A stretch of 64,000 bases of DNA from Eledone cirrhosa (lineage: Eukaryota): assembly GCA_964016885.1 (NCBI GenBank), contig OZ024744.1, positions 124,806,001 to 124,870,000 on the forward strand, in the 5' to 3' direction. Position 1 is the stretch's first letter. Each line of letters opens with the position of its first letter. Shown one piece after another: positions 24,219-52,209 of this stretch. The notes beneath the pieces were generated by a model that did not search any database, had not been told where the DNA came from, and saw nothing but the letters and a program-made list of their open reading frames with translations. The position numbers were made by a program, and so were the translations under genes.

Positions 24219-24306
24219 ACCCTAACCCTAAACCTAACCCCAACTCCAACTCTGACCCTAAACCTAACCCCAACCCCAACCCTAACCCTAACCCTAACCC
24301 TAACCC
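24219..24306. repeat. Degenerate telomere-like (CCCTAA)n tract fused to the spacer repeats
   Basis: CCCTAA/CCCCAA/CCTAAA hexamers ending in perfect CCCTAA copies. Confidence 0.85.
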
Positions 24307-24308
24307 AC

Positions 24309-25229
24309 GATAGAAGACGTTCGTTACCGCTGGAGCAACGCAAATTACTCCTCGGTTGACGCCAAAAACGAACGCCTTCTCGACGGCTAGCCGCATTTCG
24401 TGATCCGCCTTTCGATTGCGCTTCCGTCGCGGAAAAAGAATTGCCTTTATAGGCCGCCGCCGCCCGACCGGACCCACGATAGAAGACGTTCGTTACCGCT
24501 GGAGCAACGCAAATTACTCCTCGGTTGACGCCAAAAACGAACGCCTTCTCGACGGCTAGCCGCATTTCGTGATCCGCCTTTCGATTGCGCTTCCGTCGCG
24601 GAAAAAGAATTGCCTTTATAGGCCGCCGCCGCCGCCCGACCGGACCCACGATAGAAGACGTTCGTTACCGCTGGAGCAACGCAAATTACTCCTCGGTTGA
24701 CGCCAAAAACGAACGCCTTCTCGACGGCTAGCCGCATTTCGTGATCCGCCTTTCGATTGCGCTTCCGTCGCGGAAAAAGAATTGCCTTTATAGGCCGCCG
24801 CCGCCCGACCGGACCCACGATAGAAGACGTTCGTTACCGCTGGAGCAACGCAAATTACTCCTCGGTTGACGCCAAAAACGAACGCCTTCTCGACGGCTAG
24901 CCGCATTTCGTGATCCGCCTTTCGATTGCGCTTCCGTCGCGGAAAAAGAATTGCCTTTATAGGCCGCCGCCGCCCGACCGGACCCACGATAGAAGACGTT
25001 CGTTACCGCTGGAGCAACGCAAATTACTCCTCGGTTGACGCCAAAAACGAACGCCTTCTCGACGGCTAGCCGCATTTCGTGATCCGCCTTTCGATTGCGC
25101 TTCCGTCGCGGAAAAAGAATTGCCTTTATAGGCCGCCGCCGCCGCCCGACCGGACCCACGATAGAAGACGTTCGTTACCGCTGGAGCAACGCAAATTACT
25201 CCTCGGTTGACGCCAAAAACGAACGCCTT
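24309..25229 (+). promoter_or_regulatory. rDNA IGS-type tandem repeats (169/172 bp, 5 full plus 1 partial); candidate Pol I spacer promoters or enhancers
   Basis: Starts at 24309, 24478, 24650, 24819, 24988, 25160. Each full unit contains CTTTATAGG(CCG)n, reminiscent of TATAGG Pol I start motifs. The array lies ~360 bp upstream of the 18S start. The repeat is certain; the promoter role is inferred. Confidence 0.6.
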
Positions 25230-25587
25230 CCGGTTCGGGCGACGTAAAAGTCTGTAGCCTTTTCGCCGATCCTCGACGATTATCCGCCTTCCGAACAACC
25301 GCCTTTCCGCCGTCACAGCAGTAGGTACTCGTCCGTCGTAATAGCCGTCATTTTAATGCAGGAGAAACGCCTAAATGCACTGCGATTGACGACGATCTAC
25401 GACGCGCTTACTCTTCCTTGCTGCGACGAAGGTTTCGTTCGGCTTTTCGTCGTGGACCCGGTCAGGTCATGCCGCTGATCTCGCGTTGCGTCGTTACCGC
25501 TGGAGCAACGCAAATTACTCCTCGTTTAACGCCAACATCGAACGCGCTTCGGTTCTCGGTCGTCGTTGTTTTGTTTCGTGCGGAAGA
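25230..25587 (+). other. 5'ETS-like segment
   Basis: CpG-rich segment between the spacer repeats and the 18S 5' end; assigned by position. Confidence 0.55.
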
Positions 25588-25771
25588 TACCTGGGTGATC
25601 CTGCCAGTAGTCATATGCTTGTCTCAAAGCTTAAGCCATGCAAGTGGAAGTTCATGCCGTAAACGAAAATGGTGAAACCGCGAATGGCTCAGGAACCGGA
25701 TCTAATCCTCGGGACCGTATTCCTCACCGCGAGGAGAGGATAACTGTGGCAATTCTAGAGCTAATACATGC
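25588..25771 (+). pseudogene. 18S rRNA: 18S rRNA 5' fragment (first ~185 nt only)
   Basis: TACCTGGGTGATCCTGCCAGTAGTCATATGCTTGTCTCAAAG.TTAAGCCATGCA...GTGAAACCGCGAATGGCTCA...GGATAACTGTGGCAATTCTAGAGCTAATACATGC matches the universal eukaryotic SSU 5' end; colinearity stops after it. Confidence 0.93.
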
Positions 25772-25779
25772 AATTGAGA

Positions 25780-28700
25780 TCGGAGAGGGAGCGATCCGTC
25801 TGCTTGATTCCGATAACGAACGAGACATTCGTATCCGAAAGAACGTTTGTCTGGAAACTGGTGCAGTCAGTGAGTCGAAAAAAAAATATCTCGGTGGTAG
25901 TAGCAAATATTCGAACGAGACATTCGTATGCGAAAGAACGTTTGTCGGTGGTAGTAGCAAATATTCGAACGAGACATTCGTATGCGAAAGAACGTTTGTC
26001 TGGAAGTGGCGATCCATGCCCGGTGGATAGTTGGTTCCGGGTTTTACTATGATTGTTGCAAAACAGAAACTTAAAGGGATTGACAGAATTTGCGATTCCG
26101 GAGAGAGGGCGATCCGTCTGCTTGATTCCGATAACGAACGAGACATTCGTATCCGAAAGAACGTTTGTCTGGAAACTGGTGAGTCAGTGAGTCGAAAAAA
26201 AAATATCTCGGTGGTAGTAGCAAATATTCGAACGAGACATTCGTATGCGAAAGAACGTTTGTCGGTGGTAGTAGCAAATATTCGAACGAGACATTCGTAT
26301 GCGAAAGAACGTTTGTCTGGAAGTGGCGATCCATGCCCGGTGGATAGTTGGTTCCGGGTTTTACTATGATTGTTGCAAAACAGAAACTTAAAGGGATTGA
26401 CAGAATTTGCGATTCCGGAGAGGGGGCGATCCGTCTGCTTGATTCCGATAACGAACGAGACATTCGTATCCGAAAGAACGTTTGTCTGGAAACTGGTGAG
26501 TCGAAAAAAAAATATCTCGGTGGTAGTAGCAAATATTCGTATGCGAAAGAAAAGATCTCGGTGGTAGTAGCAAATATTCGAACGAGACATTCGTAGGCGA
26601 AAGAAAAATATCTCGGTGGTAGTAGCAAATATTCGAACGAGACATTCGTATGCGAAAGAACGTTTGTCGGTGGTAGTAGCAAATATTCGAACGAGACATT
26701 CGTATGCGAAAGAACGTTTGTCTGGAAGTGGCGATCCATGCCCGGTGGATAGTTGGTTCCGGGTTTTACTATGATTGTTGCAAAACAGAAACTTAAAGGG
26801 ATTGACAGAATTTGCGATTCCGGAGAGAGGGCGATCCGTCTGCTTGATTCCGATAACGAACGAGACATTCGTATCCGAAAGAACGTTTGTCTGGAAACTG
26901 GTGAGTCAGTGAGTCGAAAAAAAAATATCTCGGTGGTAGTAGCAAATATTCGAACGAAACATTCGTATGCGAAAGGACGTTTGTCGGTGGTAGTAGCAAA
27001 TATTCGAACGAGACATTCGTATGCGAAAGAACGTTTGTCTGGAAGTGGCGATCCATGCTCGGTGGATAGTTGGTTCCGGGTTTTACTATGATTGTTGCAA
27101 AACAGAAACTTAAAGGGATTGACAGAATTTGCGATTCCGGAGAGGGGGCGATCCGTCTGCTTGATTCCGATAACGAACGAGACATTCGTATCCGAAAGAA
27201 CGTTTGTCTGGAAACTGGTGAGTCAGTGAGTCGAAAAAAAAAATATCTCGGTGGTAGTAGCAAATATTCGAACGAGACATTCGTATGCGAAAGAACGTTT
27301 GTCGGTGGTAGTAGCAAATATTCGAACGAGACATTCGTATGCGAAAGAACGTTTGTCTGGAAGTGGCGATCCATGCTCGGTGGATAGTTGGTTCCGGGTT
27401 TTACTATGATTGTTGCAAAACAGAAACTTAAAGGGATTGACAGAATTTGCGATTCCGGAGAGGGGGCGATCCGTCTGCTTGATTCCGATAACGAACGAGA
27501 CATTCGTATCCGAAAGAACGTTTGTCTGGAAACTTGTGAGTCAGTGAGTAGAAAAAAAAATATCTCGGTGGTAGTAGCAAATATTCGAACGAGACATTCG
27601 TATGCGAAAGAACGTTTGTCGGTGGTAGTAGCAAATATTCGAACGAGACATTCGTATGCGAAAGAACGTTTGTCTGGAAGTGGCGATCCATGCCCGGTGG
27701 ATAGTTGGTTCCGGGTTTTACTATGATTGTTGCAAAACAGAAACTTAAAGGGATTGACAGAATTTGCGATTCCGGAGAGGGGGCGATCCGTCTGCTTGAT
27801 TCCGATAACGAACGAGACATTCGTATCCGAAAGAACGTTTGTCTGGAAACTGGTGAGTCGAAAAAAAAATATCTCGGTGGTAGTAGCAAATATTCGAACG
27901 AGACATTCGTAGGCGAAAGAAAAATATCTCGGTGGTAGTAGCAAATATTCGAACGAGACATTCGTATGCGAAAGAACGTTTGTCGGTGGTAGTAGCAAAT
28001 ATTCGAACGAGACATTCGTATGCGAAAGAACGTTTGTCGGTGGTAGTAGCAAATATTCGAACGAGACATTCGTATGCGAAAGAACGTTTGTCTGGAAGTG
28101 GCGATCCATGCCCGGTGGATAGTTGGTTCCGGGTTTTACTATGATTGTTGCAAAACAGAAACTTAAAGGGATTGACAGAATTTGCGATTACGGAGAGGGG
28201 GCGATCCGTCTGCTTGATTCCGATAACGAACGAGACATTCGTATCCGAAAGAACGTTTGTCTGGAAACTGGTGAGTCAGTGAGTCGAAAAAAAAAATATC
28301 TCGGTGGTAGTAGCAAATATTCGAACGAGACATTCGTATGCGAAAGAACGTTTGTCGGTGGTAGTAGCAAATATTCGAACGAGACATTCGTATGCGAAAG
28401 AACGTTTGTCGGTGGTAGTAGCAAATATTCGAACGAGACATTCGTAGGCGAAAGAAAAATATCTCGGTGGTAGTAGCAAATATTCGAACGAGACATTCGT
28501 ATTCGAAAGAACGTTTGTCTGGAAGTTGCGATCCATGCCCGGTGGATAGTTGGTTCCGGGTTTTACTATGATTGTTGCAAAACAGAAACTTAAAGGGATT
28601 GACAGAATTTGCGATTCCGGAGAGGGGGCGATCCGTCTGCTTGATTCCGATAACGAACGAGACATTCGTATCCGAAAGAACGTTTGTCTGGAAACTGGTG

Positions 28701-31700
28701 AGTCAGTGAGTCGAAAAAAAAAATATCTCGGTGGTAGTAGCAAATATTCGAACGAGACATTCGTATGCGAAAGAACGTTTGTCGGTGGTAGTAGCAAATA
28801 TTCGAACGAGACATTCGTATGCGAAAGAACGTTTGTCGGTGGTAGTAGCAAATATTCGAACGAGACATTCGTATGCGAAAGAACGTTTGTCTGGAAGTGG
28901 CGATCCATGCCCGGTGGATAGTTGGTTCCGGGTTTTACTATGATTGTTGCAAAACAGAAACTTAAAGGGATTGACAGAATTTGCGATTCCGGAGAGAGGG
29001 CGATCCGTCTGCTTGATTCCGATAACGAACGAGACATTCGTATCCGAAAGAACGTTTGTCTGGAAACTGGTGAGTCAGTGAGTCGAAAAAAAAATATCTC
29101 GGTGGTAGTAGCAAATATTCGAACGAGACATTCGTATGCGAAAGAACGTTTGTCGGTGGTAGTAGCAAATATTCGAACGAGACATTCGTATGCGAAAGAA
29201 CGTTTGTCTGGAAGTGGCGATCCATGCCCGGTGGATAGTTGGTTCCGGGTTTTACTATGATTGTTGCAAAACAGAAACTTAAAGGGATTGACAGAATTTG
29301 CGATTCCGGAGAGGGGGCGATCCGTCTGCTTGATTCCGATAACGAACGAGACATTCGTATCCGAAAGAACGTTTGTCTGGAAACTGGTGAGTCGAAAAAA
29401 AAATATCTCGGTGGTAGTAGCAAATATTCGTATGCGAAAGAAAAGATCTCGGTGGTAGTAGCAAATATTCGAACGAGACATTCGTAGGCGAAAGAAAAAT
29501 ATCTCGGTGGTAGTAGCAAATATTCGAACGAGACATTCGTATGCGAAAGAACGTTTGTCGGTGGTAGTAGCAAATATTCGAACGAGACATTCGTATGCGA
29601 AAGAACGTTTGTCTGGAAGTGGCGATCCATGCCCGGTGGATAGTTGGTTCCGGGTTTTACTATGATTGTTGCAAAACAGAAACTTAAAGGGATTGACAGA
29701 ATTTGCGATTCCGGAGAGAGGGCGATCCGTCTGCTTGATTCCGATAACGAACGAGACATTCGTATCCGAAAGAACGTTTGTCTGGAAACTGGTGAGTCAG
29801 TGAGTCGAAAAAAAAATATCTCGGTGGTAGTAGCAAATATTCGTATGCGAAAGAAAAGATCTCGGTGGTAGTAGCAAATATTCGAACGAGACATTCGTAG
29901 GCGAAAGAAAAATATCTCGGTGGTAGTAGCAAATATTCGAACGAGACATTCGTATTCGAAAGAACGTTTGTCTGGAAGTTGCGATCCATGCCCTGTGGAT
30001 AGTTGGTTCCGGGTTTTACTATGATTGTTGCAAAACAGAAACTTAAAGGGATTGACAGAATTTGCGATTCCGGAGAGGGGGCAATCCGTCTGCTTGATTC
30101 CGATAACGAACGAGACATTCGTATCCGAAAGAACGTTTGTCTGGAAACTGGTGAGTCAGTGAGTCGAAAAAAAAAATATCTCGGTGGTAGTAGCAAATAT
30201 TCGAACGAGACATTCGTATGCGAAAGAACGTGTGTCGGTGGTAGTAGCAAATATTCGAACGAGACATTCGTATGCGAAAGAACGTTTGTCTGGAAGTGGC
30301 GATCCATGCTCGGTGGATAGTTGGTTCCGGGTTTTACTATGATTGTTGCAAAACAGAAACTTAGAGGGATTGACAGAATTTGCGATTCCGGAGAGGGGGC
30401 GATCCGTCTGCTTGATTCCGATAACGAACGAGACATTCGTATCCGAAAGAACGTTTGTCTGGAAACTGGTGAGTCAGTGAGTCGAAAAAAAAATATCTCG
30501 GTGGTAGTAGCAAATATTCGAACGAGACATTCGTATGCGAAAGAACGTTTGTCGGTGGTAGTAGCAAATATTCGAACGAGACATTCGTATGCGAAAGAAC
30601 GTTTGTCGGTGGTAGTAGCAAATATTCGAACGAGACATTCGTATGCGAAAGAACGTTTGTCTGGAAACTGGTGAGTCAGTGAGTCGAAAAAAAAATATCT
30701 CGGTGGTAGTAGCAAATATTCGAACGAGACATTCGTATGCGAAAGAAAAATATCTCGGTGGTAGTAGCAAATATTCGAACGAGACATTCGTATGCGAAAG
30801 AACGTTTGTCTGGAAGTGGCGATCCATGCCCGGTGGATAGTTGGTTCCGGGTTTTACTATGATTGTTGCAAAACAGAAACTTAAAGGGATTGACAGAATT
30901 TGCGATTCCGGAGAGGGGGCGATCCGTCTGCTTGATTCCGATAACGAACGAGACATTCGTATCCGAAAGAACGTTTGTCTGGAAACTGGTGAGTCAGTGA
31001 GTCGAAAAAAAAATATCTCGGTGGTAGTAGCAAATATTCGAACGAGTCATTCGTATGCGAAAGAACGTTTGTCGGTGGTAGTAGCAAATATTCGAACGAG
31101 ACATTCGTATGCGAAAGAACGTTTGTCTGGAAGTGGCGATCCATGCCCGGTGGATAGTTGGTTCCGGGTTTTACTATGATTGTTGCAAAACAGAAACTTA
31201 AAGGGATTGACAGAATTTGCGATTCCGGAGAGGGGGCGATCCGTCTGCTTGATTCCGATAACGAACGAGACATTCGTATCCGAAAGAACGTTTGTCTGGA
31301 AACTGGTGAGTCAGTGAGTCGAAAAAAAAATATCTCGGTGGTAGTAGCAAATATTCGAACGAGACATTCGTATGCGAAAGAACGTTTGTCGGTGGTAGTA
31401 GCAAATATTCGAACGAGACATTCGTATGCGAAAGAACGTTTGTCTGGAAGTGGCGATCCATGCCCGGTGGATAGTTGGTTCCGGGTTTTACTATGATTGT
31501 TGCAAAACAGAAACTTAAAGGGATTGACAGAATTTGCGATTACGGAGAGGGGGCGATCCGTCTGCTTGATTCCGATAACGAACGAGACATTCGTATCCGA
31601 AAGAACGTTTGTCTGGAAACTGGTGAGTCAGTGAGTCGAAAAAAAAATATCTCGGTGGTAGTAGCAAATATTCGTATGCGAAAGAAAAGATCTCGGTGGT

Positions 31701-32732
31701 AGTAGCAAATATTCGAACGAGACATTCGTAGGCGAAAGAAAAATATCTCGGTGGTAGTAGCAAATATTCGAACGAGACATTCGTATGCGAAAGAACGTTT
31801 GTCGGTGGTAGTAGCAAATATTCGAACGAGACATTCGTATGCGAAAGAACGTTTGTCGGTGGTAGTAGCAAATATTCGAACGAGACATTCGTATTCGAAA
31901 GAACGTTTGTCTGGAAGTGGCGATCCATGCCCGGTGGATAGTTGGTTCCGGGCTTTACTATGATTGTTGCAAAACAGAAACTTAAAGGGATTGACAGAAT
32001 TTGCGATTCCGGAGAGGGGGCGATCCGTCTGCTTGATTTCGATAACGAACGAGACATTCGTATCCGAAAGAACGTTTGTCTGGAAACTGGTGAGTCAGTG
32101 AGTCGAAAAAAAAAATATCTCGGTGGTAGTAGCAAATATTCGAACGAGACATTCGTATGCGAAAGAACGTTTGTCGGTGGTAGTAGCAAATATTCGAACG
32201 AGACATTCGTATGCGAAAGAACGTTTGTCGGTGGTAGTAGCAAATATTCGAACGAGACATTCGTATGCGAAAGAACGTTTGTCTGGAAGTGGCGATCCAT
32301 GCCCGGTGGATAGTTGGTTCCGGGTTTTACTATGATTGTTGCAAAACAGAAACTTAAAGGGATTGACAGAATTTGCGATTCCGGAGAGAGGGCGATCCGT
32401 CTGCTTGATTCCGATAACGAACGAGACATTCGTATCCGAAAGAACGTTTGTCTGGAAACTGGTGAGTCAGTGAGTCGAAAAAAAAATATCTCGGTGGTAG
32501 TAGCAAATATTCGTATGCGAAAGAAAAGATCTCGGTGGTAGTAGCAAATATTCGAACGAGACATTCGTATGCGAAAGAAAAATATCTCGGTGGTAGTAGC
32601 AAATATTCGAACGAGACATTCGTATTCGAAAGAACGTTTGTCTGGAAGTTGCGATCCATGCCCGGTGGATAGTTGGTTCCGGGCTTTACTATGATTGTTG
32701 CAAAACAGAAACTTAAAGGAATTGACAGAATT
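25780..32732 (+). repeat. rRNA-mosaic satellite: 19 monomers of 317-520 bp with variable 54-bp subrepeats, made of 18S and 28S fragments
   Basis: TTGGTTCCGGG at 26031, 26348, 26753, 27070, 27388, 27705, 28123, 28550, 28922, 29239, 29644, 30003, 30321, 30841, 31158, 31475, 31942, 32314, 32673. 18S-derived modules: GATTCCGGAGAGGG, GCGAT..GTCTG..T.ATTCCGATAACGAACGAGAC, GTTGCAAA...GAAACTTAAAGG.ATTGAC. 28S-derived module: ATCTCGGTGGTAGTAGCAAATATTC.AACGAGA. Confidence 0.9.
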
Positions 32733-32759
32733 TTCGAATCGACATCAACTCGGCTACGG

Positions 32760-33120
32760 CTATCCCGTCGAGTACGAGAGTATCGCGGGATCAGAGCAAC
32801 GGTTTGCTAGGCTGCCTCTGAGCGATAACGGCTGAACGCCTCCTCTAAGCCGGAACCCTAGCCGGACCCGAGTTGTTTTTCGACAAGCGTCTCGACCTTC
32901 TTAAGGCCCATGCCTTAGTTTGGCGATTGCCGTCCGTTCGCCGACGGCGGCAGCGTCAGCGGAAATGCCATTCTGTGACGACTACGACGATTCGTCGTCG
33001 TCGTCGTCCATTCGATTTCCTGAAAGAGATAGAGACTAAAGTGATCAAATTGTTCGGAGTTACGTGCTTAGTAGAGCAGCTACCACACTGCAATCTATTG
33101 AGAGTTTTCTGACGAACGAT
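32760..33120 (+). pseudogene. 28S rRNA: Degenerate, internally deleted 28S rRNA 3'-terminal fragment
   Basis: Sarcin-ricin-loop-like AGTACGAGAG (32771-32780); GGCTGAACGCCTC(CTC)TAAGCCGGAACCC, compare GACTGAACGCCTCTAAGTCAGAATCC; AGTAGAGCAGCTACCACACTGCAATCTATTGAGAGT, compare the 28S end AGCAGAGCAGCT...CTGCGATCTATTGAAAGT. Confidence 0.8.
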
Positions 33121-34538
33121 ACAATCCGCCCACGTGGCGCCAGAAAGGGAGAAGAAAAGAAAAGTTAGACGCCGCCGATCGATCGGTTCGTTGTTTTACG
33201 TGTACACAGCTTGTGTGTGTGTCTGTATGTGATACAAGCCGCCTATCCGTCTTCCAAGTAAGTTTTGTGTGTAGACTGCGGAAAGAAATCCAATCCGCCG
33301 TCTAGGCGGTTCTGCCGCCGACCCATACTTTTGCGAGTCGCTCCCGGGAAAGACAGGCGGCAAGACGGCGTGTATACACGACGCCTTCCGTCTTCCGCCT
33401 CGAACCCGGCAAACGTTCCTTTATTCGTCCACGCCTTCCCGCTTCGATCGCGAGAAAGTAATCAATCTGTTTTGTGTGTGTGTCTGTGTGTGATACAAAT
33501 TTGTTTTCTTAATTTGATAACCATGAATTGTTTCAACACCGGCCCTTTTAAGGGCCACTTATATTTTCAATAATCAGTTTAAATGGGTTGCACCGTAGCC
33601 ACTTGGTAATACACTGCAAATCTCCCGTCAATCTATGAAGGTTTTGTAGTAGATTAGATCAAAACACAATCAGCAAGACAGTAATGGAATGAATAATATA
33701 AACATTTGTTTATAATTAAAGCCTTAAGATGTCCCTCCCTCCCTCCCTTCCTTCCTTCCTTCCTTCCTTCCTTCCTTCCTTACGATATACACTTTAATAA
33801 CATTGAAACTTATTTAATAAGTTTAAATTTTAAACACTTTTTATTCAGACGTACCGCGATAAGTAACTAGATATGTTCTAACGAATAATCCGCGATGTGG
33901 CGAGGATTACCGCGATAGGAAATTAGATACGTTCCAAAGAAATATCCGCGAAAAGTGAACCGCGATATAGCGGGTTCACCAGCCAGTGTATTACTGGTAC
34001 TTTATTTTATCGACCCCCATAAGGATGAAAGGCAAAGTTAACTGTGCAATAACAAAGGGAGATAACCTCGTCTTTTTTTTTTTACGGAGTTATTTCCCTT
34101 TAAATTTTATCTATTACTTATGATGATACAATTTAATCAGTTCTTAGCTGTCGAGACACTGCATCCTTTAAAACCTCCATGGAACAAGCTACCTGCAACA
34201 GTTGTTAGCTGTCGAGACACTGCATCTTTTAAAACCTCCATGGAACAAACTACCTGCATCAGTTGTTAGGGTCTGAGTTCAAATCACGCCGAGGAGGTTA
34301 ACTTTGCCTTTCATCCTTACGGGGTCGGTCGGAAAACGAACCATTCCCGGTTCGCTTTCGAAGCGGGTTTCCGAAAACAGCGCTTCTCTCGACCGGGCCC
34401 GTCGTCCGCTCGGCGGTGGTTTTCATCGTCCCAGGCACGGCTAACAGGCGGAGACGGGACAAACGCGCGTGTTCCTTTTTTTATCAGCCGCAGCGCCGTT
34501 CGTATATATGCTTAGGTTGTTTTTTTTTTAAATATCCT

Positions 34539-34720
34539 AAGTTAAGTTGGGGCTAAGTTAAGTTGGGGCTAAGTTAAGTTGAGGTTAAGTTGAGTTGGGG
34601 TTAAGTTAAGTGGGGGTTAAGTTAAGCTGGGGTTAAGTTAAGTTGAGGTTAAGTTAAGTTGGGGTTAAGTCAAGTTGGGGTTAAGTTAAGTTGGGGTTAA
34701 GTTAGGTTGCGGTTAAGTTA
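34539..34720. repeat. G-rich telomere-like minisatellite (GGGGTTAAGTTAAGTT)n
   Basis: About 11 copies of a 15-16-bp unit directly abutting the foldback satellite. Confidence 0.85.
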
Positions 34721-37700
34721 CATTCGCCGCCGGACTTCAGCTTCCTCATTTAGCATGGGCAGTCTTTCTTGAAAATCACACCACACACAGCAAATGTGTG
34801 TCCGCACATGTACCAGTAATTACAGATCGATTCCGGTGAAAATTCACTGAAAACGGGCCATCCGGCCCTGTGCGTCGATCGTGGGCCGGCCGGATGTTGA
34901 CGGATCGATGTGTAATTAGAAGTACATGTGCGGACACTCATTGGCTGTGCGTGGTATGCATTTCAGCAAGATATCTCCGTAACATCAAGAGTTATGGCTG
35001 TGGAGGCACACCTAGTCAAACGTAAACAAGGTCTGGAGCGTTTACGCTTCGCGATTTTGTTTACGTTTGACTAGGTGTGCCTCCACAGCCACAACTCTTG
35101 ATGTTACGGAGATATCTTGCTGAAATGCATACCGCGCACAGCCAATGAGTGTCCGCACATGTACTTCTAATTACACATCGATCCGTCAACATCCGGCCGG
35201 CCCACGATCGATGCACAGGGCCGGATGGCCCGTTTTCAGTGAATTTTCACCGGAATCGATCTGTAATTACTGGTACATGTGCGGAGACACATTTGCTGTG
35301 TGTGGTGTGATTTTCAAGAAAAACTGCCCATGCTAAATGAGGAAGCTGAAGTCCGCCGGCGAATGGTGTGCTTCGAAGAAAACTAATTCGAAAATGACCG
35401 TTTGCAGGCGGAGTAACCTTTTCGATCGTGGGCCAGCCGCCCGTGGTGGGATCCATCTGTAATTACTGGTACATGTGCGGACATACATTTGCTGTGTGTG
35501 GTGTGATTTTCAAGAAGAACTGCCCATGCTAAATGAGGAAGCTGAAGTCCGCCGGCGAATGGTGTGCTTCGAAGAAAACTAATTCGAAAATGACCGTTTG
35601 CAGGCGGGGTAACCTTTTCGATCGTGGGCCAGCCGCCCGTGGTGGGATCCATCTGTAATTACTGGTACATGTGCGGACACACATTTGCTGTGTGTGGTGT
35701 GATTTTCGAGAAAGACTGCCCATGCTAAATGAGGAAGCTGAAGTCCGCCGGCGAATGGTGTGCTTCGAAGAAAACTAATTCGAAAATGACTATTTGCCGG
35801 CGGAATCACCTTTTCGGTCCTGGTCCGGCCGGATCTTGCCGGATCGATCGGAAATTTGTGGACCATGTTCGGAAGGCCATTGTGCATGTGTGGTGAAAAA
35901 AATTTGTGTCGAAATCTTCTCGGAAAATAACGGATCGCCGGCGGAGATTGCCATTTCGATCGTGGGCCGGCCGGATCTTGTCGGATCGATTCGGACATAT
36001 GTGCATCGTGTTCGCAAGGCCCTTGTCTATGTGTGGTGTGATTTTCATAAAGAAATTCCGAAAAACCCAGTTTTAAATCTGATTTCGCCAAAGAATTTTG
36101 GCTATCAGATCGGGTTGAAAGGTATGGTTTCAGGTCGATCTGAAAGTCTAAAATGGAATTCACTCGGTTAGCTAACTTTTGATATATCGGAGATATCTTT
36201 CTGAAAATCACACCACACACTCCCAATGAGTGTCTGCACATGTACCAGTAATTACAGATGGATCCCACCACGGGCGGCCGGCCCACGATCGAAAAGGTTA
36301 CTCCGAAGCACACCATTCGCCGGCGGAATTCATTTAGCATGGGCAGTTTTTCTCGAAAATCACACCACACACAGCCAATGAGTGTCCGCACATGTACCAG
36401 TAATTACAGATGGATCCCACCACGGGCGGCTGGCCCACGATCGAAAAGGTTACTCCGCCTGCAAACGGTCATTTTCGAATTCGTTTTCTTCGAAGCACAC
36501 GATTCGCCGGCGGACTTCAGCTGCCTCATTTAGCATGGGCAGTTTTTCTCGAAAATCACACCACACACAGCAAATGTGTGTCCGCACATGTACCAGTAAT
36601 TACAGATCGATTCCGGTGAAAATTCACTGAAAACGGGCCATTCGGCCCTGTGCGTCGATCGTGGGCCGGCCGGATGTTGACGGATCGATGTGTAATTAGA
36701 AGTACATGTGCGGACACTCATTGGCTGTGCGTGGTATGCATTTCAGCAAGATATCTCCGTAACATCAAGAGTTATGGCTGTGGAGGCACACCTAGTCAAA
36801 CGTAAACAAGCTCTGGAGCGTATACGCTTCGCGATTTTGTTTACGTTTGACTAGGTGTGCCTCCACAGCCACAACTCTTGATGTTACGGAGATATCTTGC
36901 TGAAATGCATACCACGCACAGCCAATGAGTGTCCGCACATGTACTTCTAATTACACATCGATCCGTCAACATCCGGCCGGCCCACGATCGACGCACAGCG
37001 CCGGATGGCCCGTTTTCAGTGAATTTTCACCGGAATCGATCTGTAATTACTGGTACATGTGCGGACACACATTTGCTGTGTGTGGTGTGATTTTCACGAA
37101 AAACTGCCCATGCTAAATGAGGAAGCTGAAGTCCGCCGGCGAATGGTGTGCTTCGAAGAAAACTAATTCGAAAATGACCGTTTGCAGGCGGAGTAACCTT
37201 TTCGATCGTGGGCCAGCCGCCCGTGGTGGGATCCATCTGTAATTACTGGTACATGTGCGGACATACATTTGCTGTGTGTGGTGTGATTTTCAAGAAGAAC
37301 TGCCCATGCTAAATGAGGAAGCTGAAGTCCGCCGACGAATGGTGTGCTTCGAAGAAAACTAATTCGAAAATGACCGTTTGCAGGCGGGGTAACCTTTTCG
37401 ATAGTGGGCCAGCCGCCCGTGGTGGGATCCATCTGTAATTACTGGTACATGTGCGGACACACATTTGCTGTGTGTGGTGTGATTTTCGAGAAAGACTGCC
37501 CATGCTAAATGAGGAAGCTGAAGTCCGCCGGCGAATGGTGTGCTTCGAAGAAAACTAATTCGAAAATGACTATTTGCCGGCGGAATCACCTTTTCGGTCC
37601 TGGTCCGGCCGGATCTTGCCGGATCGATCGGAAATTTGTGGACCATGTTCGGAAGGCCATTGTGCATGTGTGGTGAAAAAAATTTGTGTCGAAATCTTCT

Positions 37701-40700
37701 CGGAAAATAACGGATCGCCGGCGGAGATTGCCATTTCGATCGTGGGCCGGCCGGATCTTGTCGGATCGATTCGGACATATGTGCATCGTGTTCGCAAGGC
37801 CCTTGTCTATGTGTGGTGTGATTTTCATAAAGAAATTCCGAAAAACCCAGTTTTAAATCTGATTTCGCCAAAGAATTTTGGCTATCAGATCGGGTTGAAA
37901 GGTATGGTTTCAGGTCGATCTGAAAGTCTAAAATGGAATTCACTCGGTTAGCTAACTATTGATATATCGGAGATATCTTTCTGAAAATCACACCACACAC
38001 TCCCAATGAGTGTCTGCACATGTACCAGTAATTACAGATGGATCCCACCACGGGCGGCCGGCCCACGATCGAAAAGGTTACTCCGAAGCACACCATTCGC
38101 CGGCGGAATTCATTTAGCATGGGCAGTTTTTCTCGAAAATCACACCACACACAGCCAATGAGTGTCCGCACATGTACCAGTAATTACAGATGGATCCCAC
38201 CACGGGCGGCTGGCCCACGATCGAAAAGGTTACTCCGCCTGCAAACGGTCATTTTCGAATTCGTTTTCTTCGAAGCACACGATTCGCCGGCGGACTTCAG
38301 CTGCCTCATTTAGCATGGGCAGTTTTTCTCGAAAATCACACCACACACAGCAAATGTGTGTCCGCACATGTACCAGTAATTACAGATCGATTCCGGTGAA
38401 AATTCACTGAAAACGGGCCATTCGGCCCTGTGCGTCGATCGTGGGCCGGCCGGATGTTGACGGATCGATGTGTAATTAGAAGTACATGTGCGGACACTCA
38501 TTGGCTGTGCGTGGTATGCATTTCAGCAAGATATCTCCGTAACATCAAGAGTTATGGCTGTGGAGGCACACCTAGTCAAACGTAAACAAGCTCTGGAGCG
38601 TATACGCTTCGCGATTTTGTTTACGTTTGACTAGGTCTGCCTCCACAGCCACAACTCTTGATGTTACGGAGATATCTTGCTGAAATGCATACCACGCACA
38701 GCCAATGAGTGTCCGCACATGTACTTCTAATTACACATCGATCCGTCAACATCCGGCCGGCCCACGATCGACGCACAGGGCCGGATGGCCCGTTTTCAGT
38801 GAATTTTCACCGGAATCGATCTGTAATTACTGGTACATGTGCGGACACACATTTGCTGTGTGTGGTGTGATTTTCACGAAAAACTGCCCATGCTAAATGA
38901 GGAAGCTGAAGTCCGCCGGCGAATGGTGTGCTTCGAAGAAAACTAATTCGAAAATGACCGTTTGCAGGCGGAGTAACCTTTTCGATCGTGGGCCAGCCGC
39001 CCGTGGTGGGATCCATCTGTAATTACTGGTACATGTGCGGACATACATTTGCTGTGTGTGGTGTGATTTTCAAGAAGAACTGCCCATGCTAAATGAGGAA
39101 GCTGAAGTCCGCCGACGAATGGTGTGCTTCGAAGAAAACTAATTCGAAAATGACCGTTTGCAGGCGGGGTAACCTTTTCGATAGTGGGCCAGCCGCCCGT
39201 GGTGGGATCCATCTGTAATTACTGGTACATGTGCGGACACACATTTGCTGTGTGTGGTGTGATTTTCGAGAAAGACTGCCCATGCTAAATGAGGAAGCTG
39301 AAGTCCGCCGGCGAATGGTGTGCTTCGAAGAAAACTAATTCGAAAATGACTATTTGCCGGCGGAATCACCTTTTCGGTCCTGGTCCGGCCGGATCTTGCC
39401 GGATCGATCGGAAATTTGTGGACCATGTTCGGAAGGCCATTGTGCATGTGTGGTGAAAAAAATTTGTGTCGAAATCTTCTCGGAAAATAACGGATCGCCG
39501 GCGGAGATTGCCATTTCGATCGTGGGCCGGCCGGATCTTGTCGGATCGATTCGGACATATGTGCATCGTGTTCGCAAGGCCCTTGTCTATGTGTGGTGTG
39601 ATTTTCATAAAGAAATTCCGAAAAACCCAGTTTTAAATCTGATTTCGCCAAAGAATTTTGGCTATCAGATCGGGTTGAAAGGTATGGTTTCAGGTCGATC
39701 TGAAAGTCTAAAATGGAATTCACTCGGTTAGCTAACTATTGATATATCGGAGATATCTTTCTGAAAATCACACCACACACTCCCAATGAGTGTCTGCACA
39801 TGTACCAGTAATTACAGATGGATCCCACCACGGGCGGCCGGCCCACGATCGAAAAGGTTACTCCGAAGCACACCATTCGCCGGCGGAATTCATTTAGCAT
39901 GGGCAGTTTTTCTCGAAAATCACACCACACACAGCCAATGAGTGTCCGCACATGTACCAGTAATTACAGATGGATCCCACCACGGGCGGCTGGCCCACGA
40001 TCGAAAAGGTTACTCCGCCTGCAAACGGTCATTTTCGAATTCGTTTTCTTCGAAGCACACGATTCGCCGGCGGACTTCAGCTGCCTCATTTAGCATGGGC
40101 AGTTTTTCTCGAAAATCACACCACACACAGCAAATGTGTGTCCGCACATGTACCAGTAATTACAGATCGATTCCGGTGAAAATTCACTGAAAACGGGCCA
40201 TTCGGCCCTGTGCGTCGATCGTGGGCCGGCCGGATGTTGACGGATCGATGTGTAATTAGAAGTACATGTGCGGACACTCATTGGCTGTGCGTGGTATGCA
40301 TTTCAGCAAGATATCTCCGTAACATCAAGAGTTATGGCTGTGGAGGCACACCTAGTCAAACGTAAACAAGCTCTGGAGCGTATACGCTTCGCGATTTTGT
40401 TTACGTTTGACTAGGTCTGCCTCCACAGCCACAACTCTTGATGTTACGGAGATATCTTGCTGAAATGCATACCACGCACAGCCAATGAGTGTCCGCACAT
40501 GTACTTCTAATTACACATCGATCCGTCAACATCCGGCCGGCCCACGATCGACGCACAGGGCCGGATGGCCCGTTTTCAGTGAATTTTCACCGGAATCGAT
40601 CTGTAATTACTGGTACATGTGCGGACACACATTTGCTGTGTGTGGTGTGATTTTCACGAAAAACTGCCCATGCTAAATGAGGAAGCTGAAGTCCGCCGGC

Positions 40701-43700
40701 GAATGGTGTGCTTCGAAGAAAACTAATTCGAAAATGACCGTTTGCAGGCGGAGTAACCTTTTCGATCGTGGGCCAGCCGCCCGTGGTGGGATCCATCTGT
40801 AATTACTGGTACATGTGCGGACACACATTTGCTGTGTGTGGTGTGATTTTCGAGAAAGACTGCCCATGCTAAATGAGGAAGCTGAAGTCCGCCGGCGAAT
40901 GGTGTGCTTCGAAGAAAACTAATTCGAAAATGACTATTTGCCGGCGGAATCACCTTTTCGGTCCTGGTCCGGCCGGATCTTGCCGGATCGATCGGAAATT
41001 TGTGGACCATGTTCGGAAGGCCATTGTGCATGTGTGGTGAAAAAAATTTGTGTCGAAATCTTCTCGGAAAATAACGGATCGCCGGCGGAGATTGCCATTT
41101 CGATCGTGGGCCGGCCGGATCTTGTCGGATCGATTCGGACATATGTGCATCGTGTTCGCAAGGCCCTTGTCTATGTGTGGTGTGATTTTCATAAAGAAAT
41201 TCCGAAAAACCCAGTTTTAAATCTGATTTCGCCAAAGAATTTTGGCTATCAGATCGGGTTGAAAGGTATGGTTTCAGGTCGATCTGAAAGTCTAAAATGG
41301 AATTCACTCGGTTACCTAACTATTGATATATCGGAGATATCTTTCTGAAAATCACACCACACACTCCCAATGAGTGTCTGCACATGTACCAGTAATTACA
41401 GATGGATCCCACCACGGGCGGCCGGCCCACGATCGAAAAGGTTACTCCGAAGCACACCATTCGCCGGCGGAATTCATTTAGCATGGGCAGTTTTTCTCGA
41501 AAATCACACCACACACAGCCAATGAGTGTCCGCACATGTACCAGTAATTACAGATGGATCCCACCACGGGCGGCTGGCCCACGATCGAAAAGGTTACTCC
41601 GCCTGCAAACGGTCATTTTCGAATTCGTTTTCTTCGAAGCACACGATTCGCCGGCGGACTTCAGCTGCCTCATTTAGCATGGGCAGTTTTTCTCGAAAAT
41701 CACACCACACACAGCAAATGTGTGTCCGCACATGTACCAGTAATTACAGATCGATTCCGGTGAAAATTCACTGAAAACGGGCCATTCGGCCCTGTGCGTC
41801 GATCGTGGGCCGGCCGGATGTTGACGGATCGATGTGTAATTAGAAGTACATGTGCGGACACTCATTGGCTGTGCGTGGTATGCATTTCAGCAAGATATCT
41901 CCGTAACATCAAGAGTTATGGCTGTGGAGGCACACCTAGTCAAACGTAAACAAGCTCTGGAGCGTATACGCTTCGCGATTTTGTTTACGTTTGACTAGGT
42001 GTGCCTCCACAGCCACAACTCTTGATGTTACGGAGATATCTTGCTGAAATGCATACCACGCACAGCCAATGAGTGTCCGCACATGTACTTCTAATTACAC
42101 ATCGATCCGTCAACATCCGGCCGGCCCACGATCGACGCACAGGGCCGGATGGCCCGTTTTCAGTGAATTTTCACCGGAATCGATCTGTAATTACTGGTAC
42201 ATGTGCGGACACACATTTGCTGTGTGTGGTGTGATTTTCACGAAAAACTGCCCATGCTAAATGAGGAAGCTGAAGTCCGCCGGCGAATGGTGTGCTTCGA
42301 AGAAAACTAATTCGAAAATGACCGTTTGCAGGCGGAGTAACCTTTTCGATCGTGGGCCAGCCGCCCGTGGTGGGATACATCTGTAATTACTGGTACATGT
42401 GCGGACACACATTTGCTGTGTGTGGTGTGATTTTCGAGAAAGACTGCCCATGCTAAATGAGGAAGCTGAAGTCCGCCGGCGAATGGTGTGCTTCGAAGAA
42501 AACTAATTCGAAAATGACTATTTGCCGGCGGAATCACCTTTTCGGTCCTGGTCCGGCCGGATCTTGCCGGATCGATCGGAAATTTGTGGACCATGTTCGG
42601 AAGGCCATTGTGCATGTGTGATGAAAAAAATTTGTGTCGAAATCTTCTCGGAAAATAACGGATCGCCGGCGGAGATTGCCATTTCGATCGTGGGCCGGCC
42701 GGATCTTGTCGGATCGATTCGGACATATGTGCATCGTGTTCGCAAGGCCCTTGTCTATGTGTGGTGTGATTTTCATAAAGAAATTCCGAAAAACCCAGTT
42801 TTAAATCTGATTTCGCCAAAGAATTTTGGGTATCAGATCGGGTTGAAAGGTATGGTTTCAGGTCGATCTGAAAGTCTAAAATGGAATTCACTCGGTTAGC
42901 TAACTTTTGATATATCGGAGATATCTTTCTGAAAATCACACCACACACTCCCAATGAGTGTCTGCACATGTACCAGTAATTACAGATGGATCCCACCACG
43001 GGCGGCCGGCCCACGATCGAAAAGGTTACTCCGAAGCACACCATTCGCCGGCGGAATTCATTTAGCATGGGCAGTTTTTCTCGAAAATCACACCACACAC
43101 AGCCAATGAGTGTCCGCACATGTACCAGTAATTACAGATGGATCCCACCACGGGCGGCTGGCCCACGATCGAAAAGGTTACTCCGCCTGCAAACGGTCAT
43201 TTTCGAATTAGTTTTCTTCGAAGCACACCATTCGCCGGCGGACTTCAGCTTCCTCATTTAGCATGGGCAGTTTTTCTCGAAAATCACACCACACACAGCA
43301 AATGTGTGTCCGCACATGTACCAGTAATTACAGATCGATTCCGGTGAAAATTCACTGAAAACGGGCCATTCTGCCCTGTGCGTCGATCGTGGGCCGGCCG
43401 GATGTTGACGGATCGATGTGTAATTAGAAGTACATGTGCGGACACTCATTGGCTGTGCGTGGTATGCATTTCAGCAAGATATCTCCGTAACATCAAGAGT
43501 TATGGCTGTGGAGGCACACCTAGTCAAACGTAAACAAGCTCTGGAGCGTATACGCTTCGCGATTTTGTTTACGTTTGACTAGGTGTGCCTCCACAGCCAC
43601 AACTCTTGATGTTACGGAGATATCTTGCTGAAATGCATACCACGCACAGCCAATGAGTGTCCGCACATGTACTTCTAATTACACATCGATCCGTCAACAT

Positions 43701-45125
43701 CCGGCCGGCCCACGATCGACGCACAGGGCCGGATGGCCCGTTTTCAGTGAATTTTCACCGGAATCGATCTGTAATTACTGGTACATGTGCGGACACACAT
43801 TTGCTGTGTGTGGTGTGATTTTCACGAAAAACTGCCCATGCTAAATGAGGAAGCTGAAGTCCGCCGGCGAATGGTGTGCTTCGAAGAAAACTAATTCGAA
43901 AATGACCGTTTGCAGGCGGAGTAACCTTTTCGATCGTGGGCCAGCCGCCCGTGGTGGGATACATCTGTAATTACTGGTACATGTGCGGACACACATTTGC
44001 TGTGTGTGGTGTGATTTTCGAGAAAGACTGCCCATGCTAAATGAGGAAGCTGAAGTCCGCCGGCGAATGGTGTGCTTCGAAGAAAACTAATTCGAAAATG
44101 ACTATTTGCCGGCGGAATCACCTTTTCGGTCCTGGTCCGGCCGGATCTTGCCGGATCGATCGGAAATTTGTGGACCATGTTCGGAAGGCCATTGTGCATG
44201 TGTGGTGAAAAAAATTTGTGTCGAAATCTTCTCGGAAAATAACGGATCGCCGGCGGAGATTGCCATTTCGATCGTGGGCCGGCCGGATCTTGTCGGATCG
44301 ATTCGGACATATGTGCATCGTGTTCGCAAGGCCCTTGTCTATGTGTGGTGTGATTTTCATAAAGAAATTCCGAAAAACCCAGTTTTAAATCTGATTTCGC
44401 CAAAGAATTTTGGCTATCAGATCGGGTTGAAAGGTATGGTTTCAGGTCGATCTGAAAGTCTAAAATGGAATTCACTCGGTTAGCTAACTATTGATATATC
44501 GGAGATATCTTTCTGAAAATCACACCACACACTCCCAATGAGTGTCTGCACATGTACCAGTAATTACAGATGGATCCCACCACGGGCGGCTGGCCCACGA
44601 TCGAAAAGGTTACTCCGCCTGCAAACGGTCATTTTCGAATTAGTTTTCTTCGAAGCACACCATTCGCCGGCGGACTTCAGCTTCCTCATTTAGCATGGGC
44701 AGTTTTTCTTGAAAATCACACCACACACAGCAAATGTGTGTCCGCACATGTACCAGTAATTACAGATCGATTCCGGTGAAAATTCACTGAAAACGGGCCA
44801 TTCGGCCCTGTGCGTCGATCGTGGGCCGGCCGGATGTTGACGGATCGATGTGTAATTAGAAGTACATGTGCGGACACTCATTGGCTGTGCGTGGTATGCA
44901 TTTCACTAAGATATCTCCGTAACATCAAGAGTTATGGCTGTGGAGGCACACCTAGTCAAACGTAAACAAGGTCTGGAGCGTTTACGCTTCGCGATTTTGT
45001 TTACGTTTGACTAGGTGTGCCTCCACAGCGACAACTCTTGATGTTACGGAGATATCTTGCTGAAATTCATACCACGCACAGCCAATGAGTGTCCGCACAT
45101 GTACCTGTAATTACACATCGATCCG
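34721..45125. repeat. Complete foldback satellite array (~10.4 kb), 7 palindrome axes
   Basis: Axes start at 35037, 36817, 38597, 40377, 41961, 43545 and 44977, giving spacings 1780, 1780, 1780, 1584, 1584, 1432. The steps equal one 196-bp or one 152-bp subrepeat. Confidence 0.95.
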
Positions 45126-45267
45126 ACGACGGACAGAGTATTCGGTTTATTTTCTTGACATATTTCTTTACATATTGTCCAGGCATGCACTTTTTCCATG
45201 ATTAGTTCTGTTGACGGCCCGCTTTCCAAAATACCTTATCCTGTGCAACGCCGGGTACCACTGCTAG
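45125..45267 (+). mobile_element. Helitron-type 3' terminus (second copy)
   Basis: CCTGTGCAACGCCGGG-N8-CTAG(45264-45267)|T. Confidence 0.7.
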
Positions 45268-45488
45268 TATATATATGTGTATGTATATATATATATATAT
45301 ATATTGGTAAACGGAATAGAAAATTGTGACAAATTGTTCACAGTGAAAAATAGTTTAATTAGGAATAAGTGATAATTAGTAATAGTATTGGTTAGTATTA
45401 AGTTTTGGTTTTAAGTTTTACCGGTTGCGCATTTCTAATGCTTTTCAAAAATAATTTTGAGATAGAGCGTCCGTGATGTTTGCTCTGA

Positions 45489-45532
<44 letters not shown>

Positions 45533-46097
45533 AACAGTAGAAAGGAAAAAGATTTTTTCAGTAGAAATTGCTGAAGAGATTCTTTCAGTGTAATTTCAAA
45601 ACATTAATTTATTTATAAAGTGGATATTTCCACATTTAATAATGGCACTGGGTTCAGCATTATATACATTGTCAATTGTGGATTCTACTTTTGGCACAAG
45701 GGCTGCAATTATCCAGTACATTACTGGTACTTTATTATTTATACAAATAATAATTGTTTCTACTTTTGGCACAAGGGCAGCAATTACCCAGTACATTACT
45801 GGTACTTTATTATTTATACAAATAATAATTGTTTCTACTTTAGGCACAAGGTCAGCAATTACCCAGTACATTACTGGTACTTTATTATTTATACAAATAA
45901 TAATTGTTTCTACTTTAGGCACAAGGTCAGCAATTACCCCAGTACTTTATTTTATCGACCCCGTAAGGATGAAAGAAAAGTTAACCTCAACGGGATTTGA
46001 ACTCAGTCTGTAAAGGGAGGTAACTGCTGGATTAATTTGGTTAATTAAGTTAACAGAAATTATGAACCGGTTTCTACAGAGCCTTCTGGACATTTAA

Positions 46098-46318
46098 CCC
46101 TTTAGCATTTAAACCAGCCATACCTAGCCAGAATACTCTCACATCTTTCTGTTCAAACCAGCCATAACTGGCCACTCATACTGACGTTAAGGTATTGTTC
46201 TCAATATAAATAATATCAAAATCTCATAGATTCGATATTATATGAGATAATTATGTAAGATAAAGCCTTTACCACAAAAATACAATAGTATATATAGAGT
46301 AATAAAAATGCTAAAGGG
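46098..46318. mobile_element. piggyBac-like MITE (second copy)
   Basis: Duplicate of 4481-4701. Confidence 0.65.
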
Positions 46319-46626
46319 TAAAAGTAGCTTATTATTTTGTGAGCTCTTGCTACTTATTGCTCTTGTGCATCAAGAACATACACAGCTTACATTTTGTTGC
46401 TAATCTCACTGAGATCCAACTACATCTCTTGTTTATCCATAGTTTGGAATTTCTACCTACTCCTTTCCTTTAGAATGATCAAGGCCATTTTCTTGTGGGG
46501 ATCTAGGCCCTGTTTTCCTTTCTATTTTGCCAAGTTATCTTACATCACTTTCATTCTAGACCATGCTTCCAGGTTTGGAATTTCTCCTCTAATTTTACCA
46601 CAGATTAAGTGACAAGGGTTCAATCA

Positions 46627-48337
46627 TGTGCATACAGGAGTTCCCATGGACAGCCAGTAATATGTAATAGCCTGCAGGATGATAATAAACAGAAGAGGGT
46701 TAATTACAGAGCCCTGATAGAGGGTTAATAACAGAGCCCTGATAGACTTGTTCACTCAACTCCTCACTATAGCCATCATTACTTTTAACCTTACTGACTG
46801 CTCCTCCATACATGGCTTTTACTGCTCTCACAAGCCACTCATATACCCCTAGTTTTCTAAGTTATACACCAGATTAGGGAAGGGGGAAGTCTCACAGAAG
46901 CTCTCTCTGGGTCAACAAATGCCAAGTAGAGGGGCTTATTTTAGCTAGGTACTACTCTTGCAGTTGCCACACAAGGAAGAGGACATCAGTGGTACTTTTA
47001 CCTGGCACAAATCCAAACTTCATCTCATCTAGGTTAACTTGGTCCCTAATCAGCTGTGTTATAAATCTAACACCTTCATGAAGTGGTCCATCTAATATCT
47101 CTATAGTTTTCTAGCTCTAGTACATCTCCTTTGCCCTTGTAGCAGTTGATGATGATGATACTACACCATTTATTTGGTATGACACCATTTTGTATTACAT
47201 GCTGTACGATACCAGTGGTTAAGATGTGACCCACCATCCCAGATACTTTCAGTATCTCAGCAACTATCACCAATGGACAAGATACTTTCTCTGTCTTCAT
47301 ATCCTTAATTACCTTACTTCATATCCTTAATTACCTTACTGCTTACTTGTATGGCTGGACCCTCTGTTGGGCCCACTTTCCGTAGACTATCTTCCTCCCA
47401 TGCATTCTCCTCATTCAGTAATCTTTCATAAAGGCATTTCCATGTTACAAAGGTTGGCTGAAAAGTTCATAGACTATCAATGATAGCATGATGCTAGAGC
47501 TGTGAAATCTTGCCTGCATTAATTTCAACTCTTCTTATTAATAACTGCATTGTTTCCTTCCAGGGACTATGTTGAAAAATAAACCTCATTTGGTCATTCC
47601 ATGAGTGTATCTTGGTCTGCCTATGAACTTTTCAGCTGACCCTATTCAGCATCAGTGAGCCCAAATGCCCCATTATCATCCTGGACACACTTTACCCCAA
47701 CATCACAATTTGCCCTCACACACTGCCTCACAATCCTGAACATCTCATGTATTTCATCCTCACATCATAAAACCAACTGAAATTATATATTCTCTGCTTC
47801 CCTCCTTGCAAAGAATACTTCTTGCCTAGCTTCCTGTAGTGTACCCTCCAGCTGCCTCCATTCTGCCATTATTCCATGCCTGTCTCTTGGCCTTAACTGT
47901 CTCATCTACCCTAGTGTTTCACCACCAAGATACTCTCCTCTCTGAAGCCCTGCTCCAGCCACAGATCTAGTTTGACACCTTCAGCAAAGGTTCTTTAAGG
48001 AACTCCCACTGTTCCCCTATATTGTATGTTTCTATTTGTTCTTCCTTACTGTTGTAAAGATCAAACAAAATATCTCTAAATTTGGAACTGGCTGAGGGGT
48101 CCTTTAACTTCCATATCCTTCTCCTCCAAGTTGCCCTCAGTCTTCAAGTTCATCTAAGTCTATGAAATCACTAACTACTGGGTTATGTTGGGAGGTGCAT
48201 TCTTCCCCAGGGGGTGGGGATTGTGTGTTTACAAATGTCAATATCTCATCTTCTGGTGAGGATAAAAATCTGACTGGCATGCTCCTCTGACCAATAGGTG
48301 TTGAAGTGGTTGTCGGGTAAACGTTAAGACCCTCTGA
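46627..48337 (-). pseudogene. Decayed RTE LINE with nested mariner-like MITE at 47446-47645 (second copy)
   Basis: Duplicate of 5010-6720. Confidence 0.7.
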
Positions 48338-48357
48338 TATACATATATATATATATA

Positions 48358-48625
48358 CTAGCAGTGGTACCCGGCGTTGCACGGGATAACGTATTTCGGA
48401 ACGCGGGCCGCCATCTTCCACTTCAGCCGGTCGCCCTAAAGTGTTGGCTATTCAGTCTACTTGAGGCCAGTTGGTGAGGGGGGGTAAAGCTTTCAGTGTG
48501 CTACTACCCTCACGGTCAAATAGAAAGGGAGAGGAAGAAAAGTCAGCGTTAATATCGTGCTACACGTTTGAAAGGTTGGATGACCTTAGAGTTCACCAGG
48601 GTGGGGGGTTCTAAAAGTATCTATC
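48358..48625 (-). mobile_element. Helitron-type 3' end fragment (second copy)
   Basis: Duplicate of 6743-7010; CTAG at 48358-48361. Confidence 0.65.
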
Positions 48626-50378: not shown

Positions 50379-50440
<62 letters not shown>

Positions 50441-51319: not shown

Positions 51320-51366
<47 letters not shown>

Positions 51367-51626: not shown

Positions 51627-51678
<52 letters not shown>

Positions 51679-51717
51679 GCAGACACAGACACAGAATATC
51701 GTATATATCACACACAC

Positions 51718-52209
<492 letters not shown>

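Follow-up and report, generated by a model that had tools for sequence, protein, structure and literature searches.

How does a genome come to carry a tandem repeat whose unit is assembled from distant parts of its own rRNA genes? The question is raised by a locus of Eledone cirrhosa at C28:124,806,001-124,870,000 of a 3.0-Gb assembly, a stretch of 64,000 nucleotides hereafter called the window, in which an array of about 7 kb repeats a monomer of about 317 bp head-to-tail; the first monomer of this array is the feature under study. A preliminary description had read it as a scrambled splice of 18S and 28S fragments, joined at microhomologies by repeated template switching and then amplified, and the motifs on which it relied are present where it placed them. 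The array is a satellite derived from the host's own rDNA and amplified apart from the complete rDNA units. The monomer is somewhat probably the scar left at the deletion junction of an orphan rDNA unit that was hollowed out and has no promoter, produced by repair of a DNA break with template switches, together with stepwise deletion and duplication, and later amplified twice. For a DNA-level origin taken as a whole, our confidence starts at that same modest degree and extends to a reasonably good one.

Composition of the monomer and of the unit around it

The reference for donor mapping was the genome's own rDNA, namely the complete units found via the Rfam 5.8S on C4, C6, C12 and C25 among 40 candidates scored. 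The 18S (2,860 nt) is numbered from its start and the 28S from the start given by Rfam. The four reference units carry an insert of 1.16-1.24 kb at the R2 site, and the 6,347-nt "28S" reference includes about 1.24 kb of such sequence; only one assembled unit (C12:25,175,783) has an empty R2 site, and it yields the same donors. Matches were obtained by BLASTN at word sizes of 6-7 and compared with 1,000 dinucleotide shuffles, a check which the preliminary description had itself proposed.

Pieces C, I, D and F (Table 1) outscore all 1,000 shuffles, and matches with P<=0.05 cover 238 of the 318 nt of one interior monomer. The supposed 18S and 28S ancestry is upheld by these four donors, but ITS1 contributes as well: CATTCGTAT, formerly taken for 18S central domain, is ITS1. 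The complete chain reads 18S 575-592, 18S 2026-2064, ITS1 (19 nt), a linker, 28S 2091-2124, ITS1, 28S 1404-1421 and 18S 1827-1884. After 18S 1-191, the first monomer has the order B, C, I, X, D, I, D, I, E, F, in which D and I together form a 54-bp sub-repeat. The piece assigned earlier to the 18S 5' domain (B) is weak as a 12-13-mer (P=0.30) but significant in the commonest interior variant, where it spans 18 nt (17/18 matching, P=0.022). Piece E, overlooked in the preliminary description, has P=0.025, and P=0.33 in a variant monomer. For the linker, the joint probability of its two matches was 0.0003-0.077 across six controls chosen post hoc. Its inverted ITS1 piece is A-rich and only 11 nt long (P 0.02-0.18 alone); when both strands of the 18S-28S span are considered, GTCGAAAAAA has a single occurrence, which lies in inverted orientation at 2 nt from donor I.

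The array lies inside the remains of one rDNA unit, which retains the 5'ETS, 18S 1-191 and the 28S end, with the flank order kept on both sides; the ordered right flank includes spacer to about 1.7 kb past the 28S end. Between them, about 8.6 kb, or 9.9 kb if the R2-site insert is included, from 18S nt 191 to the last ~460 nt of the 28S, has given way to about 250 nt composed of 18-58-nt pieces, every one from inside the deleted stretch. The mapped donor positions thus indicate that some 8.6 kb was replaced by pieces from within itself: all six significant or near-significant donors fall in the deleted interval, 0.4-6 kb from its ends. The deletion junction therefore holds templated pieces of the same locus, as a polymerase-theta or MMBIR junction does. 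A smaller scar is present in the ETS, where a deletion of about 840 nt is filled by an out-of-order piece of about 60 nt from the 169-bp repeat, with an overlap of 3 nt.

Complete units have a TATTATATAGGG motif about 1.5 kb before the 18S, which we take to be the probable Pol I start. The rDNA segment of the window starts about 215 nt downstream of this motif, the 245 nt around it have no match in the window, and no 5.8S is found there either. Lacking a complete 18S, 5.8S and 28S as well as the probable Pol I start, the unit fails as a functional rRNA gene. A role of the 169-bp repeats as promoter was considered and rejected, the probable start motif being located upstream of them. CpG decay, as evidence of a methylated pseudogene, was not significant (11/276 vs 10/381; P=0.37).

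Some neighboring features deserve mention on their own. At its join with the rDNA, the telomere-type (TAACCC)n tract looks like the product of chromosome-break healing; other parts of the window contain many such tracts as well. The palindromic repeat that terminates the rDNA segment has a center of two back-to-back histone-type stem-loops, with 163 pattern matches genome-wide, many of them on C18. A histone gene in the macro-unit was rejected: the stem-loop at 33536 belongs to this palindromic scrap, and no histone ORF was seen at 12 other sites.

Table 1. Positions, in the window, of the array, the pieces of its first monomer and the surrounding rDNA remains
Feature	Position	Strand	Remarks
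(TAACCC)n tract	24219..24306	+	leads in register, via ACCC, into the rDNA-derived segment
Macro-repeat unit, ~38 kb	24303..62480	+	next unit from 62481
169-bp repeat, 5.5 copies	24303..25230	+	derived from rDNA lying 1.3-1.9 kb before the 18S
Shortened 5'ETS, 4% substitutions	25271..25543	+	its end is a ~60-nt piece of the 169-bp repeat, out of order
ETS end and 18S nt 1-191	25544..25778	+	18S start at 25588
Monomer array	25780..32740	+	19 monomers with 56 D pieces
Piece B, 18S 581-592	25781..25792	+	575-592 in interior monomers, e.g. 26410-26427
Piece C, 18S 2026-2064	25788..25826	+	38/39; joined to B via GGAGC
Piece I, ITS1 nt 288-306	25828..25846	+	19/19; again at 25923-25941 and 25977-25995
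Linker X	25847..25887	+	probably gapped 28S ~1438-1461 and an inverted ITS1 11-mer; 8-nt duplication
Piece D, 28S 2091-2124	25888..25921	+	34/34; ends in CGAACGAGAC, common to C
Piece E, 28S 1404-1421	26007..26024	+	17/18
Piece F, 18S 1827-1884	26027..26088	+	82%, gapped
Last ~460 nt of 28S	32742..33128	+	8% substitutions; deletions of 26, 33 and 15 nt
Eroded 3' spacer pieces	33129..33506	+	
Palindromic dispersed repeat scrap with histone-type stem-loop	33507..33575	+	terminates the rDNA segment
Separate 28S piece, 207 nt (about nt 696-904)	34332..34538	+	
Another cluster of upstream-repeat and ETS pieces, in a more advanced state of decay	55524..56366	+	

Joining of the pieces

Microhomology is clear at two of the nine joints. 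The fusion of two 18S pieces through GGAGC, as the preliminary description had it, is confirmed: pieces B and C share these 5 nt, and only 0.7% of random joints share 5 nt or more. The common end of the 18S and 28S pieces C and D is likewise real, although it measures 10 nt (CGAACGAGAC) rather than the 7 previously given; an identity of 10 nt arises in 0.008% of random joints, and this 10-mer is one of 260 repeated 10-mers of the 18S-28S span, with exactly two occurrences in it. The remaining seven joints have overlaps of 0-1 nt or 1-6 unassigned letters, which restricts the claim of repeated microhomology-mediated switching to those two. D runs into the same A and ITS1 sequence as C does, which would be most simply accounted for by a duplication through the CGAACGAGAC identity once the C/I joint had formed; the step from 28S to ITS1 is best read as this later duplication.

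The order of the pieces was said to be non-colinear with rDNA. One simple deletion indeed cannot give it, but the first five pieces run forward, and they form the longest ascending run, for which P=0.022 if the linker is included and P=0.11 if it is omitted. Apart from the joint that closes the monomer, there is only one long backward jump, from 28S 1421 to 18S 1827, which in tandem rDNA can equal a deletion into the next unit.

These features can be accommodated in a history of four steps. First, repair synthesis of the polymerase-theta or MMBIR type, in one or few rounds, would have skipped mostly forward from 18S 575 to 18S 2026, ITS1, 28S 1438 and 28S 2091, probably snapping back within ITS1, and would have returned once, over a long distance, to 18S 1827. 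Second, slippage between the two copies of CGAACGAGAC may have doubled the ITS1 segment, a further deletion giving the 54-bp sub-repeat. Third, the chain would have been tandemly duplicated, and unequal exchange would have spread new letters inside the array while donor letters were left at its edges. Fourth, the whole neighborhood of about 38 kb would have been amplified recently. Repair of DNA is favored by the location of the donors within the deleted interval, the forward run, the ITS1 content, the probable snap-back, the ETS scar and the erosion of other rDNA orphans, as well as by the long ordered flanks and the microhomologies of 5 and 10 nt. Polymerase-theta repair yields inserts of multiple origin and in reverse complement (PMC5068794). 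According to the same study, the priming site of about 85% of the templated inserts of Caenorhabditis elegans is at most 10 bp from the break, and the donors of the monomer, being kilobases apart, depart from this pattern. The bias of donors and donor ends to conserved motifs also counts against repair, which does not predict it, and so does the absence of a significant CpG-decay signal. A search for an intermediate with the ancestral-type junction, by one exact pattern, returned no match.

This bias was evaluated with conservation scores from 17 metagenome rDNA contigs of at least 4.3 kb. The donors have a mean conservation of 0.66 vs 0.31 (P=0.009 with the R2-site insert masked in a rerun of the test; post hoc), and five out of six reach at least 0.5 (P=0.022). 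Given that conservation was one of about six properties tested, the bias is suggestive only. The donors are not significantly low in GC (P=0.11), nor do they lie preferentially in weakly folded regions, with either RNA or DNA parameters (P 0.27-0.72). Stem-skipping at the nine joints never fell below the 23rd percentile of random pairs, and duplex proxies were negative too. GC and local folding do not explain the conserved-motif bias.

A different origin, which we consider unlikely though worth weighing, is that an R2-like or other LINE reverse transcriptase copied a series of short pre-rRNA fragments into one cDNA, with which a break in an rDNA copy was then patched. All pieces are in sense orientation but for one doubtful 11-mer, their sizes are 18-58 nt, and protected rRNA cores would account for the conservation bias. 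All the retained sequence, moreover, lies downstream of the probable start motif. Four joints show 1-4 unassigned letters, comparable to those of the R2 enzyme, which adds up to 5 nt before a template jump (PMC4117753); in vivo R2 jumps to snRNA and tRNA have been reported (PMC3414825). The genome also offers R2-site inserts in six out of ten rDNA copies, two broken reverse transcriptase elements in a 28S copy on C7 and an 18S insert at C28:97.76 Mb with two out-of-order pieces and an A run. Nonetheless, there is no joint at the R2 site, the 28S resuming about 935 nt downstream of it, and no R2-insert sequence was matched in the macro-unit. Free fragments would not join in forward order, ITS1 is restricted to pre-rRNA, and the inverted piece requires an extra step. 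The poly(A) tail of a LINE-made retrocopy is absent from the segment, whose 3' end is spacer joined to the palindromic repeat. The particular version of the preliminary description, a reverse transcriptase acting on folded rRNA, gains nothing from the local folding tests: the donors are not less folded than the background and the forward joints skip no stems, while the ITS1 pieces, one of them probably inverted, would need explaining.

Ordinary successive deletions over two or three tandem rDNA units, together with local duplications and without template switching, could also be imagined. Here the backward jump becomes a deletion into the next unit, the flanks show many small deletions, and serial deletions in other orphans leave survivors of 116 and 314 nt. 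About a dozen breakpoints would be needed, each at most 60 nt from another, and yet the flanks are long; an inverted piece is impossible by this route. Besides, breakpoints of the orphans lie mostly in variable sequence and those of the monomer in conserved sequence: 10 of 14 donor ends, as opposed to 4 of 18 orphan deletion ends, fall in conserved sequence (P=0.003, the ends not being independent). The orphan figures come from nine deletions, one of which is the loss of the R2-site insert, gaps below 300 nt and one element-replaced gap being left out; overlaps of 2-11 nt are found in four of the nine. This explanation is improbable in our judgment.

Amplification and fate of the array

The exact pattern of the first-monomer junction has 59 matches in the genome (43 on C28 over 1.7 Mb, one on C18 and 15 on five unplaced contigs), whereas the reversed control has none genome-wide. 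Complex rearrangement followed by amplification, as the preliminary description envisaged, is supported. In the eight complete arrays of the 59, there are 178 monomers and array length goes from 1,267 to 19,025 nt, a 15-fold range; with 59 units, the monomer copies are on the order of a thousand. The left flanks of different macro-units are about 99.8-100% identical in 16 of 17 comparisons and 98.4% in the other one. As the rDNA-derived parts have diverged from the reference rDNA (63 substitutions in 1,218 aligned sites) while unit flanks are near-identical, the junction scar predates the 38-kb amplification.

Donor letters may persist at the ends of an array by edge escape from homogenization. 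In all eight arrays, donor letters are preserved both in the first monomer (GGGAGC) and in the last one (GGAATTGAC), and the derived letter is found in the other scored F pieces of these arrays, 143 out of 143.

It is conceivable, although very unlikely, that the array is a selected element presenting conserved rRNA motifs, either as a guide-RNA decoy or as a source of rRNA-matching small RNAs. The conserved-motif bias and the order of a thousand monomers would suit such a role. On the contrary, the probable start motif is absent, interior monomers have their motifs disrupted by substitutions and indels, array length varies 15-fold, the macro-amplification is very recent, and the runs recorded as RNA hold at most 0.09 of the words. 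Equally remote is a composite scenario, by which a reverse transcriptase would have concatenated six to eight nuclease-protected pre-rRNA cores into broken germ-line rDNA and about a thousand motif copies would now act as decoys or small-RNA sources. Judging from sequence features, the end product of the repair and amplification steps is likely a passive, inert macrosatellite.

In the sequencing runs, the share of words is 0.61-0.71 in three runs of the same sample and 0.09 at most in the six labelled as RNA. Run X6, from the same organism and another sample, gave a monomer contig of depth 114 vs 3,903 for ordinary 18S; the run also has a loose end that matches a part of the macro-unit outside the rDNA, so that DNA carry-over is a fitting explanation. 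Three runs labelled as other organisms contain near-identical monomer contigs, at depths of 3-36 vs about 10,000 or more for their own rRNA. Homologues of the monomer in other species were rejected on reading these contigs as cross-contamination; one of the runs also holds ordinary rDNA of this species at a depth of about 5.

The macro-units differ in other respects. A block region of 196-bp repeats (window 34721-44770), with alternating inverted blocks of 1.6-1.8 kb, changes in copy number between them. A LINE ORF of 857 aa with endonuclease and reverse transcriptase, on the minus strand of the window (11017-13590), has no listed counterpart at the equivalent position in the next unit. The lone unit on C18 (6.72 Mb) is interrupted inside the 28S piece, where sequence from an upstream part of the unit has been joined on.

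Related repeats and other rDNA remnants

Several known systems resemble this satellite in part. The tomato IGS satellite (PMC2679016) is likewise a homogenized tandem repeat from a decaying rDNA unit, but there contiguous spacer was amplified and coding sequence lost, whereas the Eledone monomer is an 18S/ITS1/28S mosaic in a hollow unit. The 5S-derived PcP190 and Rana 219A (PMC12054243) are also homogenized tandem derivatives of rDNA, each from one contiguous 5S segment. Templated insertions by polymerase theta (PMC5068794) and the complex rearrangements of MMBIR share the short templated pieces, small overlaps, unassigned letters and possible snap-back; the templates of the former lie beside the break, whereas the Eledone donors are kilobases apart and their scar has turned into the monomer of a satellite. 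R2 template-jump chimeras and SIDEs (PMC3414825, PMC4117753) and class 1 and 2 templated sequence insertions (PMC5110952) have in common with it the short, sense, RNA-like pieces, the few extra letters and the location in rDNA. Compared with them, the monomer is off the R2 site, has neither an R2 end nor a poly(A) tail, and contains six to eight pieces instead of one jump. SINE28 (PMC10946416) is also built of 28S fragments; it is a dispersed retroposon, whereas the Eledone repeat is tandem, multi-donor and within a 38-kb unit. In the open-access literature on rDNA-derived repeats, to the extent of its accessible text, neither a mosaic 18S/ITS1/28S monomer nor a multi-donor repair-scar monomer was found.

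The locus presents a satellite near its birth with all stages legible: the donor gene, the scar, the sub-repeat, the monomer array with ancestral edges and the 38-kb unit. If the pieces were RNA-derived, serial template jumping on rRNA would here be recorded in the germ line. From a practical point of view, about a thousand scrap copies mean that probes, primers or k-mer counts based on conserved 18S/28S motifs would mis-measure rDNA in this species.

Other rDNA remnants are abundant in this genome. Many dispersed near-complete copies with colinear deletions of kilobases occur on C1, C2, C3, C4, C7 and C10; ten were fetched, and six of the seven that were aligned have internal gaps of at least 300 nt, from which it follows that rDNA orphans erode in the genome. 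The isolated 18S insert at C28:97.76 Mb (L188:5659-6309) consists of 18S 1700-2068 followed by 18S 1581-1859, with an A run at its end and no obvious target-site duplication. Inserts of 1.16-1.37 kb lie exactly at the R2 site in six of the ten rDNA copies examined (units of C25, C12, C4 and C6; orphans of C3), and the insert looks like a non-autonomous R2 derivative. An eroded orphan at C7:29.28 Mb carries in its 28S copy two broken reverse transcriptase elements (Pfam RVT_1) similar to the termini of the R2-site insert; these elements, presumably R2-like by their motifs, are possible autonomous partners of that insert.
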